A program made the translations under genes and the position numbers. Positions 2,894-12,418 of a DNA stretch of 24,000 nucleotides are shown piece after piece. Position 1 is the stretch's first letter. Each line of letters starts with the position of its first letter. The stretch comes from Candidatus Woesearchaeota archaeon (lineage in GTDB: Archaea; Nanobdellota; Nanobdellia; Pacearchaeales; UBA284): assembly GCA_964354405.1 (NCBI GenBank), contig CAYGZP010000001.1, positions 382,570-406,569 of the forward strand. Direction: 5' to 3'. The notes below the pieces were generated by a model. The model was not told the DNA's origin. It searched no databases and saw only the letters and a list, made by a program, of their open reading frames with translations.

Positions 2894-3937
2894 TCAAAAA
2901 TCGCCCAATCCTTTCTGGCTGGCTTTTTCTTTGTTCTCGTATATCTTCCCTAAAGCTGATGTAACTCGCTCCTCGCTGAAATCATGCTCATCACATAACA
3001 ACTTCTTGAGGGCTTTTTCATCTATTTTTTTGAATTCTATTTTGTAGTCACTTGTAACGTCGGGTTTTTTGAACAATTCAAAAATGTCTTGCCAGTCAAA
3101 ATCAGGATTATTAATCTTGCCCTCTTCTGCGAGCTTGCCTAAAGCACTAAATAACAGGGAAGGAGATCTATACTGTTGCACAAGTTGCAGAGCTTTCTTT
3201 GGCCCGATTCCTTTGACACCTCCGGGGTTAAAATCAGTTCCAACAAGAATCCCCAAACAAATGAGCTGCTCGTGATTTATCTGCAGTGAGTTGAGAACTT
3301 GCTCAAGCTCAATCATCTCAGGAACAATAGGAACAAATGCACCGCTCGCCAATTTTCTTTTTCTTGCTAAAGTCAAATTCTGGATAAGCCGGGAAGCTCC
3401 AAAAGCTAATGAATCATAATCCTGCGAGGCAACAGCATAAGCCTCCCCTTTCTTGACAATGTAAGAGCATTGAGCCTCGCCTTCGCTCGGAGCCTGCACA
3501 ACAGGCAGCCCCAGAGCTTCAACAAGTTTCTTGCTCTCCTCTATCATCTCCTCTGTCAAATGCAGCGCTTGCCTTGAATATTTGAACATATCCTCTTCGC
3601 TTCCTCGAGCTTTAGCTTTATCATACTTTTCCTTGGCTTCTTCCTTGTGCGCGATTCTTTCTGAGACAGTCTCGCCTTTCAAAGCATGAGGCTTGCCGTC
3701 AAAAACATAAATGAGTTTCAAACCCCGCGCCATCAAATTAGTGGTTCTATAAAACAATCCCGAGAGATGAGAAGTAACCCGTTTCTTGCTGTCCATTAAA
3801 GGGGTTCCGTCAGGCTGTCTTATGTTGGCAAGAAATTGATAAATGACATTAAAGGCGTCTACCGCCAGGATTTTGCCTTTCAAATCCTCAATCTTTATTT
3901 CTTTTTTAGGAACAATATCCCTTATCTGCAAACCCAT
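2894..3937 (-). CDS. fen: Flap endonuclease 1 (FEN1)
   Basis: MGLQIRDIV...LKGKILAVDAFNVIYQFL...LIYVFDGKP...GLPVVQAPSEGEAQCSY...QDYDSLAFG...GTDFNPGGVKGIGPKKA are the XPG-N, XPG-I and H3TH motifs. The ATG at 3937 is preferred over the TTG at 3952. The C-terminal QKGLGDF is PIP-box-like. Confidence 0.95.
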   Translation of the reverse strand: MGLQIRDIVPKKEIKIEDLKGKILAVDAFNVIYQFLANIRQPDGTPLMDSKKRVTSHLSGLFYRTTNLMARGLKLIYVFDGKPHALKGETVSERIAHKEEAKEKYDKAKARGSEEDMFKYSRQALHLTEEMIEESKKLVEALGLPVVQAPSEGEAQCSYIVKKGEAYAVASQDYDSLAFGASRLIQNLTLARKRKLASGAFVPIVPEMIELEQVLNSLQINHEQLICLGILVGTDFNPGGVKGIGPKKALQLVQQYRSPSLLFSALGKLAEEGKINNPDFDWQDIFELFKKPDVTSDYKIEFKKIDEKALKKLLCDEHDFSEERVTSALGKIYENKEKASQKGLGDF

Positions 3938-6589: not shown

Positions 6590-7345
6590 ATGACAGAACA
6601 AATCAAACTATTTGAAGGACATTATAACAAACAAATGCCCTTGCTAAGAGCAAAAGGCTTTAAACCCGCAACAGCAGAGGAAATACAAAAATTAAGGCTG
6701 GAAAGCAAACTTTCTTTTGATGTTTATTATGACACTGCAACAGGAATTTTCTATGCAGGAGATAATAAAGACAAATTCAAAATTATTCCTTATTCAAAAG
6801 ACTTAGCCAATGTAACTGATAAAACTGAGCTTTATAACGGCGGAATAAAGAAAACTCAAGAGGATTATGAAAAAGCAAAAGCTCAAGAATTCACAAGAAA
6901 AAACATGATTTTAAATGAAAGATTAACAGAAAAAGAAGTTTTAGAGCATTTAGGATGGCTTACTGCATTAAATAATAATAAAGAACTGCTTGAAAAAGTT
7001 GTTGAGCATGTCTTCAAAGAAGTTAGAAATAGATATGATGAAAGTAAGGCAATGGGCTTTTATTTAAGAGATGCTCAAAAAGTTCCGAATGAGCGCGCCC
7101 TTTACCTCGACAGGTTCGACGGCGGCTGGGCTGGTGCCAGCGGCAGCTACGGCCTCGACGACGATGCGCGTCTTGTTGGGGTATGTGAGAAAACTGGCGA
7201 AGCCAGTTCGCGCCCAGAAAAAGTTTTGCCTTATTCCCGAGAGGAACTAAAAAATTATGAAAAGATTATAAATGGGGTTGTTAAGGGCAAAATACCAAGT
7301 CAAGAACTTAAGCCTCTTTTAAAATTTATCAAAAAACTAAGGTAA
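6590..7345 (+). CDS. DGR variable (target) protein, otherwise uncharacterised
   Basis: 251-aa ORF. The VR encodes residues about 168-198 (ERALYLDRFDGGWAGASGSYGLDDDARLVGV). No signal peptide or TM helix is visible by eye. The C-terminal 50 aa are K-rich. Confidence 0.85.
   Translation: MTEQIKLFEGHYNKQMPLLRAKGFKPATAEEIQKLRLESKLSFDVYYDTATGIFYAGDNKDKFKIIPYSKDLANVTDKTELYNGGIKKTQEDYEKAKAQEFTRKNMILNERLTEKEVLEHLGWLTALNNNKELLEKVVEHVFKEVRNRYDESKAMGFYLRDAQKVPNERALYLDRFDGGWAGASGSYGLDDDARLVGVCEKTGEASSRPEKVLPYSREELKNYEKIINGVVKGKIPSQELKPLLKFIKKLR
7090..7183 (+). repeat. DGR variable region (VR)
   Basis: The core 7092-7178 aligns without gaps to 7543-7629 (offset 451): 72 identities and 15 mismatches. Every mismatch lies opposite a TR adenine (14 A->G, 1 A->T). 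The flanking positions 7090, 7091 and 7179-7181 also differ only at TR adenines. The first non-A mismatch is at 7184. Confidence 0.9.
7192..7208 (+). promoter_or_regulatory. Perfect hairpin just 3' of the VR (candidate DGR target-recognition stem-loop)
   Basis: AACTGGC-GAA-GCCAGTT forms a 7-bp stem with a 3-nt loop, starting 9 nt after the end of VR homology. No counterpart follows the TR. Confidence 0.55.
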
Positions 7346-7540
7346 GTTTTTTAAATTATTCCTTTTTTATTTTAAAGCCCCAGTAATTCTGTTAATCCAA
7401 AAGATTTAACAGAAAAGCTTGGACTACACGCCAATTAATAGAGCTTTTTGTTGTTAATAAAAAGTTATGAAATACAGCTGCAACCATGAGTAGCTTATGC
7501 GAAAATCGAAGCAGCAGTGAAGTTTAGTTAATTGACTATT

Positions 7541-7634
7541 AAAGCGCGCCCTTTACCTCAACAGGTTCGACAACAACAGGGCTGATGCCAACGACAACTA
7601 CAACCTCAACAACAATGCGCGTCTTGTTGAAATA
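7541..7634 (+). ncRNA. DGR template region (TR)
   Basis: Noncoding copy of the VR. In the VR frame it reads KRALYLNRFDNNRADANDNYNLNNNARLVEIV, with 8 AAC codons and 1 AAT codon. The core contains 26 adenines, of which 15 are substituted in the VR. It ends 24 nt before the RT start codon. Confidence 0.9.
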
Positions 7635-7658
7635 GTCCTTGCTTCTCGGGGTTTTACC

Positions 7659-8678
7659 ATGAAAACTTATAAAAACCTTTATGAAAAGCTGTATTCTTTA
7701 GAAAATTTGATTCTTGCCTGGAAAAGTGCAAGAAAAAGAAAAACAAGAAAAGATTATGTTATTGAATTTGAAAAAGATCTTTTTAAAAATCTAATGGCTT
7801 TGCATTACGAATTGAAAAGCCAGACTTATAGCCCAAAGCCCCTAAAATCTTTTATAATAAGAGACCCTAAAACCCGCAGAATTTCAAAATCTGCTTTTCG
7901 TGATAGAATTGTTCACCATGCCTTATGCAATATCATTGAGCCAATATTATCTAAATCTTTCATATATGACAGCTATGCAAATAGAAAAAGGAAAGGAACA
8001 CACAAAGCAATACAAAGATTTGACTTGTTTAAGAGAAAAGTCTCAAGAAATAACACAAAAGCGTGTTTTGTATTAAAAGCAGACATAAAACATTATTTTC
8101 AGGAAGTCAGCCATAAAATTTTATTAAACATAATAGGCAGAAAAATAAAAGATGGAAAAGTTTTGTGGCTTATTAAAAAGATTTTAAACAACCATGAGAC
8201 AAGCAAATCTGACAAGGGCATGCCTTTAGGCAATCTGACATCTCAGTTCTTCGCAAATGTTTATTTAAATGAGCTTGATAATTTTGCTAAAAGAAATTTG
8301 GGGGTAAAATATTATATAAGATACGTTGACGATATTGCTATATTTTCAAATTCTGAGAAAGAATTAAAATGTATTTTAATAAAAATAGAATCCTTTTTGA
8401 AATCTGAACTTGATTTAAAAGTTCATGAAGACAAGTCCAGAATAAAATTAATACATTCTGGAATAAAAATGTTGGGCTATAGAATTTTCTACTACTATAA
8501 ATTATTAAGAAAGAGTAATTTAAGGAAATTCAAGAAGAATTTTACAGAAAAATTAAGTTTGTTAGAAAGTGGAATAATCTGTAAAGAAGAGTTGCTTTTA
8601 AGTTTGAACGGATGGTTTGGATATGCAAAATGGGCAGATACTTATAAGTTAAGAAAAGAAATAATCAATCAAATCTAA
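7659..8678 (+). CDS. DGR-type reverse transcriptase
   Basis: 339 aa. N-terminal LENLILAWKSARKRKTRK, then FRDRIVHHAL and DSYANRKRKGTHKA. PLGNLTSQFFANVYLNELD (8229-8246 encodes GNLTSQ) is the DGR-typical xGxxxSQ motif rather than the group II QGxxxSP. Catalytic YVDD is at 8322-8333. There is no maturase or endonuclease tail. Confidence 0.9.
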   Translation: MKTYKNLYEKLYSLENLILAWKSARKRKTRKDYVIEFEKDLFKNLMALHYELKSQTYSPKPLKSFIIRDPKTRRISKSAFRDRIVHHALCNIIEPILSKSFIYDSYANRKRKGTHKAIQRFDLFKRKVSRNNTKACFVLKADIKHYFQEVSHKILLNIIGRKIKDGKVLWLIKKILNNHETSKSDKGMPLGNLTSQFFANVYLNELDNFAKRNLGVKYYIRYVDDIAIFSNSEKELKCILIKIESFLKSELDLKVHEDKSRIKLIHSGIKMLGYRIFYYYKLLRKSNLRKFKKNFTEKLSLLESGIICKEELLLSLNGWFGYAKWADTYKLRKEIINQI

Positions 8679-8687
8679 ATCTAATGC

Positions 8688-9365
8688 TCAGAACTCCCCA
8701 AGCTTTTTCTGCCCGGGTTTTCTGTTCGCTGTCTTCCATGTCGCCCATGATTTTCTTATCAATCCTATCTTTGCGAGTTCTTTAGCTTTGTCAGTTTTCA
8801 GGAACTTAACGCATAGAGGATCAGAAGGATAGCCGCTCCCGCAATCAACATCATATTTTTTTCTTATCTTATCCATTTCATCATCTCTCGTGACTTTTGC
8901 CAAGATGCTCGCGGCTGAACAGACAGGATGATTAACATCAGCTTTATGCTCGCATTTCAAAACAATTTTATCTACATTATTCACATGAGACAAGACATAA
9001 TTTCTCCATGCCATGATATTATTTGAAGGGCAGTCGATAATGACTTCAACTTTGCTTGGAATATTTTTTGTCAGGACATTGATTATCTCTGCTGATTTGA
9101 GAGCTTCAATCTTATTCAGATTGATTTTCTGTCCTAAGAGCGAGTCAATCTCGCTTGCTGTTGATTTCAGGGTGATATGCGCACCAACAATCTTTTTGAT
9201 TTCTCTCGCAAGAAACTCGCGGCGTTGTGGTGTGAGAAGTTTAGAATCTTTTACTTTGATGAGCTTTAACTTGGCTTCCTGTTTCTCGTCTACTAACACA
9301 CCTGCAAGAATCATCGGCCCGATAACAGGTCCGCGCCCAGCATCATCAATTCCAATTCGTAACAT
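8688..9365 (-). CDS. rnhB: Ribonuclease HII
   Basis: MLRIGIDDAGRGPVIGPMILAGV (DDAGRG active-site motif), then CEHKAD and DCGSGYPSD. The C-terminal QKKLGEF is PIP-box-like. Confidence 0.9.
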   Translation of the reverse strand: MLRIGIDDAGRGPVIGPMILAGVLVDEKQEAKLKLIKVKDSKLLTPQRREFLAREIKKIVGAHITLKSTASEIDSLLGQKINLNKIEALKSAEIINVLTKNIPSKVEVIIDCPSNNIMAWRNYVLSHVNNVDKIVLKCEHKADVNHPVCSAASILAKVTRDDEMDKIRKKYDVDCGSGYPSDPLCVKFLKTDKAKELAKIGLIRKSWATWKTANRKPGQKKLGEF

Positions 9366-9391: not shown

Positions 9392-9496
9392 TAGCGGGGG
9401 TGGGATTTGAACCACACGACCTCGAGGTTATGGGCCTCGCGAGCTAACCAGGCTGCTTTGGGCAACACTTTTTTGTTTTAGTGTTTCCACCCCGCT
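9392..9496 (-). tRNA. tRNA-Met(CAU), initiator-like (A1:U72), with a 29-nt D-arm intron
   Basis: The minus strand has acceptor AGCGGGG/CCCCGCU and discriminator A. The anticodon stem is CGAGG/CCUCG and the loop is CCCAUAA, with the anticodon at 9430-9432. The T-arm is GUG(U)GG-UUCAAAU-CCCAC, with one bulged U. Removing 9458-9486 restores the D-arm GAGC-AGCCUGGUUA-GCUC and gives a 76-nt tRNA. CCA is not encoded. Confidence 0.8.
9458..9486 (-). other. Predicted noncanonical tRNA intron (between positions 10 and 11), bulge-helix-bulge-like
   Basis: The intron is AAACACUAAAACAAAAAAGUGUUGCCCAA. The internal helix is AACAC/GUGUU. The 4-bp helix GGGU (exon)/GCCC (intron 3' end) is flanked by the 3-nt bulges GG|A and AA|A, which contain the inferred junctions. 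That 4-bp helix uses acceptor-stem nucleotides, so it would compete with acceptor pairing. Confidence 0.55.
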
Positions 9497-9497
9497 A
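9486..9497 (-). repeat. Direct repeat copy 2 (TAGCGGGGTGGA): HEG stop codon plus tRNA-Met nt 1-11
   Basis: Exact 12-bp match to 10043-10054. Confidence 0.9.
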
Positions 9498-10037
9498 GGA
9501 TAGCATCCCCGCTTTTATAGAAATATGTTTTATACTTTTAAACTTAACTGAAATAAAGAGATTATATGACGGTAATTTATCCTTAATTGATATGGATTTT
9601 CTCCTTATAGAAGAATTAATCCCCAAAGAATTTAATTCTTTATTCAAAAATTTTATCAATTTAAAATCTGTATTTACTACTTCTATAAAATTCTTCTTCC
9701 TATTTACATATCCTTCTGCATCTATAACTCCCGAAATAAATCCCAATATTTCCTCTTTTTTTAAATTGAGTTTATTTATATCTTTATCAAATAATCCAAA
9801 AAATTCTTTATTTACAACTCTCAATCTTAAACAATTGAATCTTTTATCTTTATAATAATGAATATTATATCCCGCCTTCTTTAATATAGAAACAAGAAAT
9901 TCAATTATCTTTTTGTCATTTACAGAATTTAAATAAAATTCCACATAGTACTTTCTATATTTTTTATCATGATATTTATAACCATCTCCTATAAATAACC
10001 CTTTCAAATATCCAAATTCCTCTTTTGTTATGTTCAT
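9495..10037 (-). CDS. LAGLIDADG homing endonuclease (double-motif, I-DmoI-like size)
   Basis: 180 aa. Motif 1 is LKGLFIGDGY and motif 2 is ILGFISGVIDAEGY. The gene is very AT-rich relative to its neighbours. Its TAG stop overlaps nt 1-2 of tRNA-Met. Confidence 0.85.
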   Translation of the reverse strand: MNITKEEFGYLKGLFIGDGYKYHDKKYRKYYVEFYLNSVNDKKIIEFLVSILKKAGYNIHYYKDKRFNCLRLRVVNKEFFGLFDKDINKLNLKKEEILGFISGVIDAEGYVNRKKNFIEVVNTDFKLIKFLNKELNSLGINSSIRRKSISIKDKLPSYNLFISVKFKSIKHISIKAGMLS

Positions 10038-10109: not shown

Positions 10110-10183
10110 TGGGGCTGCCCGGATTCGAACCGGGGCCGCGAGTGCCCTAGACTCGTATACTAACCAAGCTATACTACAACCCC
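10110..10183 (-). tRNA. tRNA, apparent anticodon AGG (Pro)
   Basis: 74 nt. The acceptor is GGGGUUG/CAGCCCC with discriminator A. The D-arm is GUAU-AGCUUGGUUA-GUAU. The anticodon stem is CGAGU/ACUCG and the loop is CUAGGGC (U33, G37). The T-arm is CCCGG-UUCGAAU-CCGGG. The anticodon complement CCT is at 10146-10148. Confidence 0.75.
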
Positions 10184-11452: not shown

Positions 11453-12418
11453 ATGTATAGAATATTCTTTATAAATACCAAGGATTGTGCCGAATTTTTT
11501 GAAGAAGCAAGGAGAAATTTAGAAGTTAAAAGCTGGAAAAAACTAGGGGAAAGTATAGGAACTAATAAATCGATGATAGATAATTATAGAAAGGGAAGAT
11601 TATGTATTCCTGAAGATAAATTTAATACATTATTAAATCAATTAACTGAAAATAGAAAACAATATTTTTTGAGATTAATCGAAAAGAGAAATAGTAACTG
11701 GGGGCAAATAATAGGGGGTAAAAAAGCATATAATATAAATAAAAGGGCATTTGATATTGGAAGAAAAAATAGATTAAATCAGGTCAAATATAATTTTGAT
11801 ATCCATATTGATCTTTCAGAAGAATTGTGTGAATTTATTGGGGCATTTATTGGAGATGGTTTTACAAACAAATATAGATATTTATATCAAACACAAATAA
11901 CTGGAGATAATGTTTTAGATTCAGACTATTATTACAATAGACTAAAACCTCTTTGTGAAAAATTGTTTAAAATATCTCCTAAAATTACACAAAAGGAAGG
12001 ATGGATAAGATTAAATATATACTCAAAAAGGATGTTTGAATTGTTGACAAAAAGATTTAATTTTCCTGCTGGAAAGAAATCCTCTTCTGTTTGTATTCCT
12101 TCAGAGATCTATAATGGAAAAGAAAAATTACTTAATTCTACCTTAAAAGGAATGTTTGATACTGATGGGGGGATTGGTATTGATAAAAGAAAAGCCTATA
12201 CTGTACCTTACATAAGAATAAATTATACTTCTAGTTGTATAAAGTTGATAAAACAAGTGCACGCTATCTTATTAAAATATTCTATTAGTCATTCAATTCA
12301 TAGAAAAGAAAAAACATTTATGATCCAGATTAATGGTAAAAAGAATGTTAAGATGTTTTTATCAAAAATAGGATTTTCCAATAAAAGACATTTGGATAAA
12401 ATTAGAAGATTTTTATAA
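11453..12418 (+). CDS. LAGLIDADG homing endonuclease with about 130-aa N-terminal extension
   Basis: 321 aa. Motif 1 is LCEFIGAFIGDGF and motif 2 is LKGMFDTDGGIG. The sequence is unrelated to the 9495-10037 endonuclease outside these motifs. The gene is very AT-rich. Confidence 0.85.
   Translation: MYRIFFINTKDCAEFFEEARRNLEVKSWKKLGESIGTNKSMIDNYRKGRLCIPEDKFNTLLNQLTENRKQYFLRLIEKRNSNWGQIIGGKKAYNINKRAFDIGRKNRLNQVKYNFDIHIDLSEELCEFIGAFIGDGFTNKYRYLYQTQITGDNVLDSDYYYNRLKPLCEKLFKISPKITQKEGWIRLNIYSKRMFELLTKRFNFPAGKKSSSVCIPSEIYNGKEKLLNSTLKGMFDTDGGIGIDKRKAYTVPYIRINYTSSCIKLIKQVHAILLKYSISHSIHRKEKTFMIQINGKKNVKMFLSKIGFSNKRHLDKIRRFL

Follow-up and report, generated by a model that had tools for sequence, protein, structure and literature searches.

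What is the element at positions 6590–8678 of a 24,000-nucleotide (nt) stretch of a Candidatus Woesearchaeota archaeon genome (assembly GCA_964354405.1, contig CAYGZP010000001.1, positions 382,570–406,569 of the forward strand; hereafter the window), where a protein-coding gene is followed by a noncoding repeat of part of its own sequence and then by a gene for a reverse transcriptase (RT)? We find that it is a genuine and complete diversity-generating retroelement (DGR), in which a template repeat (TR) and a variable region (VR) within a target gene differ specifically at template adenines, and that it is of an archaeal type already described (Paul 2015, PMC4372165; Handa 2016, PMC5006420; Wu 2018, 'Architecture A', PMC5758913). 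We assign a probability of roughly 0.9 to the reading of the locus as a chromosomal DGR of the nanoarchaeal or DPANN type that has no Avd gene, together with the mechanistic steps proposed below, and the element is likely to be currently active. The new point is the placement of RT-16, an RNA family without an assigned function, directly before the TR. The parts on which the identification as a DGR depends are the following.

6590–7345, forward strand: target gene encoding 251 amino acids, with a predicted AvpA-like C-type lectin fold, an internal VR, then a disordered linker and two C-terminal helices.
7092–7178, forward strand: VR, covering residues 168–197 of the 251-residue target, with 16 variable codons; it forms an 87-nt ungapped repeat with the TR.
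7543–7634, forward strand: TR, noncoding, with its core at 7543–7629 and then, at 7628–7634, the variant TGAAAT(A) of IMH*, the template counterpart of the IMH (initiation of mutagenic homing) sequence.
7659–8678, forward strand: DGR RT of 339 amino acids, with the motifs LGNLTSQ and YVDD and no additional domains (Pfam RVT_1, 2.4e-27).

A repeat finder pairs 7092–7178 with 7543–7629 as a single 87-nt ungapped alignment of 83% identity; counted directly, it has 72 matching and 15 mismatched positions. These are the figures of a preliminary description of the locus, which had called it a DGR. All 15 mismatches fall on TR adenines and none on the 61 other positions of the core. With 26 adenines among the 87 TR bases, the hypergeometric probability that mismatches are confined to adenines is 2.9e-10, which makes the case somewhat stronger than the chance of 0.3^15 originally offered. 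The changes comprise 14 A-to-G substitutions and one A-to-T substitution, every one at the first or second codon position of the target reading frame (6590–7345), and the TR read in that frame contains eight AAC codons and one AAT codon, again as first described. Over the 16 variable codons the TR permits a repertoire of roughly 3.5e14 protein variants, among which stop codons are impossible.

No third copy of the repeat is present within the window, and the interval between the target and RT genes (7346–7658) contains no open reading frame (ORF) of more than 31 amino acids, which leaves the TR region noncoding. From the end of the TR (7629) to the start codon of the RT (7659) there are 29 nt; the distance of 24 nt in the preliminary description holds only if the repeat is counted to position 7634. 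Immediately past the core, the AAA/GGG difference between 7630–7632 and 7179–7181 was considered as a product of mutagenesis and rejected, being the fixed distinction between IMH* and IMH in the clade. As a separate observation, the TR is open in the frame of the VR and in frame with the RT start codon (7536–7658, reading ...LLKRALYLNRFDNN...ARLVEIVLASRGFT-MKTYK). The sole upstream stop codon lies at 7533–7535 and there is no in-frame start codon; the arrangement may be a coincidence.

The same layout recurs among relatives of the RT. We scanned 81 RT loci of the clade along alignment diagonals, tolerating differences at adenines and anchoring the scan upstream of the RT in every case; 54 loci yielded a TR and VR. 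The median distance from the TR to the RT downstream of it is 26 nt. The VR is usually on the strand of the TR and lies upstream of it, at a median distance of 329 nt. When the window and the IMH are excluded, TR adenines are substituted at 647 of 1299 positions (49.8%), against 21 of 3012 positions carrying other bases.

The 3′ boundary of the VR is marked by two further elements that are expected to guide homing.

7165–7183, forward strand: IMH-like 3′ end of the VR, an adenine-free TGCGCGTCTTGTTG followed by GGGGTA, with TGGGGT at 7177–7182.
7192–7208, forward strand: hairpin or cruciform (a DNA fold), AACTGGC-GAA-GCCAGTT, with a 7-bp stem and a GAA loop, inside the target ORF, where it encodes part of the disordered linker.

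The IMH of the window, TGGGGT (7177–7182), thus stands against an IMH* of TGAAAT (7628–7633), and clade-wide the VRs end in GGGGT(A/G) and the TRs in GGAAT(A/G). A GC-rich hairpin is found 8–14 nt past the VR end across the clade, with GAA as the commonest loop (24 of 54 VRs), and the hairpins of two loci (L037 and L039) are identical to that of the window. For the nanoarchaeal DGRs of DUSEL4, Paul 2015 gives an IMH of TGGGGT, an IMH* of TGGAAT and GRA-loop hairpins within the target gene (PMC4372165).

The RT ORF is intact and keeps all its catalytic motifs, and the four motifs named in the preliminary description (FRDRIVHHAL, DSYANRKRKGTH, GNLTSQ and YVDD) are all present in the 339-residue product. 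Its best solved relative is 8ub7 (E = 1.8e-51, 178 bits; the best group II intron RT reaches 104 bits), and a search with the annotated brt gene of AY029185 established that 8ub7 is bRT, the RT of the DGR of Bordetella phage BPP-1. The two proteins align end to end with 33% identity (E = 3e-62). In this alignment Arg74 of bRT corresponds to Arg73 of the window RT, and Ile181 of bRT to the Leu of LGNLTSQ; Arg74 and Ile181 are the bRT residues that promote adenine mutagenesis (PMC7826257). At least 499 relatives of the RT occur in a species-representative genome collection, and the best 80 are 52–62% identical to it, most of them labelled as Woese-, Pace- or Nanoarchaeota or as other DPANN lineages. 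The top annotated phage match is the RT of the ANMV-1 DGR (41% identity), with known DGR phages next in order. ANMV-1 is reportedly the archaeal virus of the first archaeal DGR description.

The locus therefore displays an adenine-only TR/VR pair, an RT of the [I/L/V]GxxxSQ type, an internal VR in the 3′ part of the target, a noncoding TR beside the RT, AAY-rich codons, an IMH/IMH* pair and a hairpin. Every defining feature of a DGR that can be tested in sequence supports the earlier assignment.

Less of the preliminary description survives where the target is concerned, which it took to be an otherwise uncharacterised protein. The target has no sequence match in Pfam, NCBIfam, PADLOC or the PDB. 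A word-indexed search yields only a dozen relatives and an exhaustive profile search yields 1043 clusters, nearly all of them single-domain proteins of 200–280 amino acids; none of the 117 family members sampled has a Pfam match. The family alignment consists of a conserved N-terminal domain of about 165 residues, a hypervariable block that is the VR, and then a conserved ARLVG, and the hypervariable columns coincide with the residues of the window VR. An AlphaFold (AF2) model of the target, built from 12 sequences, has a predicted local distance difference test score (pLDDT) of 83 and a predicted template-modelling score (pTM) of 0.74. Its top Foldseek match is AvpA (5ioo_A; E = 5.6e-8, probability 1.0, template-modelling (TM) scores 0.58/0.68), and later matches are mostly ordinary C-type lectins with weak scores. 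At the level of sequence, a broad profile of the target family meets AvpA only marginally (E = 0.021), with 16% identity.

The two proteins also resemble each other in layout. In the 251-residue target the VR (168–197) is internal, the hairpin is encoded in disordered residues 202–213, and tail helices are predicted at 217–231 and 237–250. AvpA has 256 amino acids, an internal VR at 181–203, a hairpin in a disordered linker and a 46-residue tail with two predicted helices (PMC5006420). We conclude from the model that the target has an AvpA-type C-type lectin fold, with its variable codons placed on the putative ligand-binding face. A protein with this predicted fold, from a family of 1043 clusters, is therefore not uncharacterised.

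The genes around the DGR encode FEN1, a family B DNA polymerase, RNase HII, two LAGLIDADG endonuclease-like ORFs, ribosomal protein S2, three tRNAs and GyrA, as well as a threonyl-tRNA synthetase carrying an archaea-specific editing domain. Because the flanking genes are housekeeping genes and the close homologues belong to DPANN lineages, we consider the element to be chromosomal in a DPANN archaeon and not viral.

No accessory gene accompanies it. The interval between target and RT offers no candidate ORF above the 31-residue size given above, none of the 20 ORFs of the window contains an Avd, HRDC or MutS-like domain, and clustering of all ORFs from the 81 loci produced no conserved accessory family. 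The clusters consist of the RT (80 loci), several target families (that of the window in 23 loci) and unrelated genes. Avd is found in about 74% of DGRs and is not universal. Architecture A1 DGRs and the set of DGRs from CPR and DPANN genomes show the same combination of a TR–RT core, an upstream target, no accessory gene and a DPANN host, and an Avd-independent mechanism has been inferred for Architecture A (Wu 2018, PMC5758913).

A third conserved component is nevertheless present, which the preliminary description omitted when it called this a two-gene cassette; the term holds for the proteins. This component, an RNA, lies between a candidate promoter and the TR.

7350–7357, forward strand: TATA-like box TTTAAATT, 29 nt upstream of the RT-16 5′ end, a putative archaeal promoter of an RT-16/TR/RT transcript.
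7379–7544, forward strand: RT-16 RNA (Rfam RF03019), a structured leader ending at the TR 5′ boundary, 97.2 bits.

The match at 7379–7544 scores 97.2 bits against a gathering score of 50 and spans the full model (positions 1–158 of 158). The sequence folds better than 200 of 200 shuffled versions (z = -4.0), and in an alignment of 17 copies compensatory changes support 13 of the 17 consensus pairs. RT-16 is one of nineteen 'RT' motifs that were defined by their location near RT genes; of these only RT-10 was tied to a DGR, it was speculated that some others might also be connected with DGRs, and RF03019 was left without an assigned function (Weinberg 2017, PMC5737381). In Rfam 15, RT-10 has been renamed 'Bacteriophage Diversity-Generating Retroelement RNA', and RT-16 is still plain 'RT-16 RNA', with no functional name. 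A literature search, whose scope did not extend to Paul et al. 2017, found no paper linking RT-16 to DGRs. Two other motifs give sub-threshold Rfam matches at 7387–7519, overlapping RT-16 (RT-14, 27.8 bits; RT-11, 22.2 bits), with a common AGUA...GAA stem, and a single RNA class may include several of the 'RT' motifs as its variants.

The association of RT-16 with the TR holds well beyond the window. RT-16 scores above threshold in 53 of 58 sources. In 46 of 50 loci its 3′ end and the beginning of the TR are no more than 5 nt apart (median offset 0). Two loci (L006 and L007) have an RT gene that runs in the opposite direction to the target; in both, RT-16 keeps with the TR and lies on the other strand from the RT. 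Orphan target loci that lack a TR have no RT-16 either. TTTAWATA-like matches upstream of RT-16 show an enrichment between −27 and −33, where 23 of the 39 in the clade fall, and A+T content peaks at 0.89 between −30 and −25, a pattern that suggests a transcription start at or near the predicted RT-16 5′ end.

On the strength of this position and conservation, we tentatively propose, at somewhat less than even odds, that in DPANN DGRs lacking Avd, RT-16 serves as a cis-acting RNA domain. As a 5′ leader of the template it would recruit and position the RT, stop cDNA synthesis at the TR 5′ boundary, and replace the 3′ spacer RNA and Avd of the BPP-1 DGR. The same RNA might instead be a mere element of the 5′ untranslated region of the RT mRNA, acting on stability or translation and taking no part in cDNA synthesis. 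Such a role would fit its location in most loci, within the RT 5′ untranslated region and about 105–130 nt before the ATG, as well as the TATA-like box that precedes it and the lack of conserved pairing with the TR 3′ flank. It does not explain why the RT-16 3′ end tracks the start of the TR and not that of the RT, why RT-16 sits with the TR opposite the RT strand in the two inverted loci, or why orphan target loci with no TR also have no RT-16. The AGUA/GAA internal loop of RT-16 is also of the sarcin–ricin class, which is a protein-contacting motif in BPP-1 DGR RNA structures. We consider the untranslated-region explanation unlikely.

A loop of this type is listed in both RT-16 and RT-10, and the RT-10 loop contacts protein in bRT–Avd–RNA structures (PMC13085918); by analogy, the loop of RT-16 provides a lead on a possible protein contact, not evidence for one. 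Also considered was a clamp that would hold the TR in a loop, by pairing of GGCUA at the 3′ end of RT-16 with UAGCC in the 3′ flank of the TR. Six complementary bases are present in the window, but the GGAAUGGCU and GGAAUAACC classes of loci are unpaired, and the clamp was rejected as probably a chance match.

Our model for the Avd-less element can be set out in a few steps. A single transcript would start at about position 7379, 25–30 nt past the TATA-like box, and would comprise the RT-16 leader, the 87-nt TR and the RT coding sequence. RT-16 would bind and position the RT and define the 5′ end of the TR, a role in which it possibly replaces the BPP-1 spacer RNA and Avd. By homology to bRT, the RT is expected to copy the TR RNA into cDNA while misincorporating opposite adenines. 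The mutagenised cDNA would then replace the VR at 7092–7178. Guidance would come from the 3′ homology, which is GC-rich and free of adenine, from the IMH (TGGGGT) and from the GAA-loop hairpin.

Among the closest known systems is that of the DUSEL4 Nanoarchaeota and AvpA (PMC4372165, PMC5006420; structure 5IOO). It shares with the window the order target–TR–RT, the TGGGGT of the IMH, a GRA-loop hairpin inside the target ORF, and a short, internal, AAY-rich VR (about 27–30 residues) that precedes a tail of some 50 residues, predicted to form two helices, in a protein of the AvpA subclass of the C-type lectin fold. It differs in the low similarity of the targets already mentioned (16% identity, profile E = 0.021) and in the IMH*, which is TGAAAT in the window and not TGGAAT. 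The available parts of these papers describe no structured RNA upstream of the TR, unlike the RT-16 of the window, and Paul 2015 (PMC4372165) mentions small Avd-sized ORFs between target and RT where the window has none. Likewise, the accessible text of Wu 2018 (PMC5758913) gives no RNA element as a feature of the class, whereas RT-16 occurs here with the TR in 53 of 58 sources.

The likeness to the BPP-1 DGR (mtd-avd-TR-brt) lies in the homologous RT (33% identity, IGxxxSQ type, with an Arg74 equivalent), in a TR-to-VR transfer that is adenine-specific and alters about 50% of adenines, and in a GC-rich IMH, a downstream hairpin and a target with a C-type lectin fold. BPP-1 has Avd and the window does not; the DGR of BPP-1 resides in a phage, and that of the window in the chromosome of a cellular archaeon. 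The RNA is arranged differently as well. In BPP-1 a structured spacer of 144 nt, on the 3′ side of the TR, separates it from brt (Rfam RF03022, 'Phage_DGR', formerly RT-10), whereas the window has only 29 nt on that side and, instead, the 166-nt structured RT-16 on the 5′ side of the TR. The substitution spectra also differ, with G > T >> C in the clade of the window and T > G > C for bRT in vitro.

Two further sequences bear on whether the element is active. The 420-kb contig that contains the window also encodes, at another place, a paralogue of the target (P0002). This protein is 81% identical to the target over the aligned region and has a VR of its own, derived from the same TR. It follows the target up to the VR, where, read at the protein level, it differs at TR-adenine codons and is then frameshifted. 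The protein sequence implies that the frameshift is a 2-nt insertion in a run of G. The paralogue is probably a second target, although it could also be a pseudogene or an assembly error. The second sequence is a 1086-nt contig of an independent assembly, from run ERR4334732 (L083), with the paralogous gene at positions 33–788. Its 5′ half matches P0002, and over the remainder, RT-16 and TR included, it has the sequence of the window. The VRs of contig and window are unlike at five positions (VR 19, 30, 31, 34 and 36), all five of them TR adenines. Differences confined to adenine positions of the VR, together with an invariant TR and RT-16, are as DGR activity predicts.

Several observations weigh against the reading of the locus as a working DGR of the kind proposed. 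The variant contig joins a 5′ half from the paralogue to a 3′ half from the window locus, and may be a chimeric assembly. It shares its IMH-proximal substitutions with the window and differs from it distally, which is not what a single partial re-homing predicts. A search for conserved RNA structure with RNAalifold over 40 loci found no pairs between the TR 3′ end and the first 110 nt of the RT ORF, so that no structure was detected 3′ of the TR that could serve as a cis-primer like that of BPP-1. The remaining points would also suit an inactive relic, in which the differences between TR and VR record past diversification and homing no longer takes place. One genome and one short variant contig lie behind the variation; the second target is frameshifted inside its VR; the IMH* of the window, TGAAAT, departs by one base from the TGGAAT of the clade; and a VR/TR scan with conserved ends and a free middle found no matches in JGI metagenomes or IMG/VR. 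A relic would not, however, be expected to retain an intact RT ORF with its catalytic motifs and Arg74 equivalent, an intact hairpin and IMH, and a core free of mismatches at all 61 non-adenine positions, nor to show, between two assemblies, no change in the TR and RT-16 but five differences in the VR, all at adenine sites. We judge it improbable that the cassette is dead.

The substitution spectrum was examined separately. Among the 647 events at TR adenines in the clade (loci L001–L080), A-to-G accounts for 58%, A-to-T for 36% and A-to-C for 6%. For comparison, bRT in vitro changes adenines to about 43% T, 35% G and 22% C (PMC7826257). The 14 of 15 A-to-G changes in the window exceed the clade value of 58% (P = 0.003), and enzyme bias or selection is a possible cause. 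The excess could also be attributed to adenosine deamination of the template or DNA in place of misincorporation by the polymerase, and the 13 of 14 A-to-G changes in the variant contig are of the same kind. Deamination yields A-to-G alone, yet the window has one A-to-T change and the variant contig a different one, transversions make up 36% (A-to-T) and 6% (A-to-C) of the clade events, and no deaminase gene lies within the window. Deamination was rejected, chiefly on the 36% of A-to-T in the clade spectrum, and is very improbable.

Least credible is the idea that the RT is that of a group II intron, a retron or a defence system (of the defence-associated RT (DRT) or abortive infection (Abi) type) and that the repeat is unrelated to it: the top NCBIfam model is indeed a group II intron RT/maturase and PADLOC reports DRT-class matches of up to 119 bits, but every score falls well under its curated cut-off (TIGR04416 for group II, 164.7 against 300 bits; retron, 44 against 235; Drt3a, 76 against 200), the protein lacks any maturase or endonuclease extension and can be aligned with bRT from end to end, Rfam detects no group II ribozyme domain or retron msr within the window, the PADLOC similarity is to the generic RT domain only, with housekeeping genes as neighbours, and the adenine-only mismatches (P = 3e-10) and the recurrence of the TR/VR layout in 54 of 81 loci speak against an unrelated repeat, so that these identities are rejected and the explanation is effectively refuted.

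As a DGR the locus adds little, given that DPANN archaea are already rich in DGRs and that the fold of the target is a solved one. It is a clean and complete example of the Avd-less class, with an intact RT and TR, one adjacent and probably one remote target, canonical cis elements and a hint of activity. The abutment of RT-16 on the TR offers an experimental way into the question of how an RT without Avd chooses its template, primes and stops, and the link between the two gives an orphan Rfam family a likely role. If RT-16 does act as a cis domain, it would represent a second, permuted architecture of DGR RNA, in which the structured domain lies 5′ and not 3′ of the TR, and the orphan motifs RT-11 and RT-14 would be suggested as DGR leaders too. 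A minimal system of one RT protein and one RNA is also of interest for engineering targeted mutagenesis with DGRs.

Some observations concern other loci of the survey. In one of them (L085, 2880–3020), immediately after an orphan target homologue comes a fragment whose coding capacity is limited to the final 47 residues of the RT (60% identity). The locus resembles a decayed DGR, with the TR and most of the RT gone. Another (L039) has two copies of RT-16, at 671–888 and 3671–3896, and a near-identical 126-nt duplication (734–859 and 3746–3871), so the contig may contain another TR unit or another DGR. An ORF family with a median length of about 390 amino acids and a motif like that of tyrosine recombinases, ETGMRVAE, lies near the DGR in 13 of the 81 RT loci (for example L007, 1747–2346, reverse strand), and some DGRs of the clade may reside on integrated mobile DNA; no ORF of this type lies within 5 kb of the DGR in the window.

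Others concern the neighbourhood of the DGR. An RNase HII gene (8688–9365, reverse strand) lies 9 nt past the RT stop codon on the opposite strand. An RNase H beside a retroelement is suggestive, but RNase HII is not a conserved neighbour in the ORF clustering of the 81 loci. Further downstream, two free-standing ORFs resembling LAGLIDADG homing endonucleases (9495–10037, reverse strand; 11453–12418, forward strand) flank the genes for tRNA-Pro, tRNA-Ser, ribosomal protein S2 and tRNA-Thr. The tRNA-Pro is called by ARAGORN at 10110–10183 (reverse strand) with the anticodon AGG, and a proline tRNA with A34 would be unusual in an archaeon.

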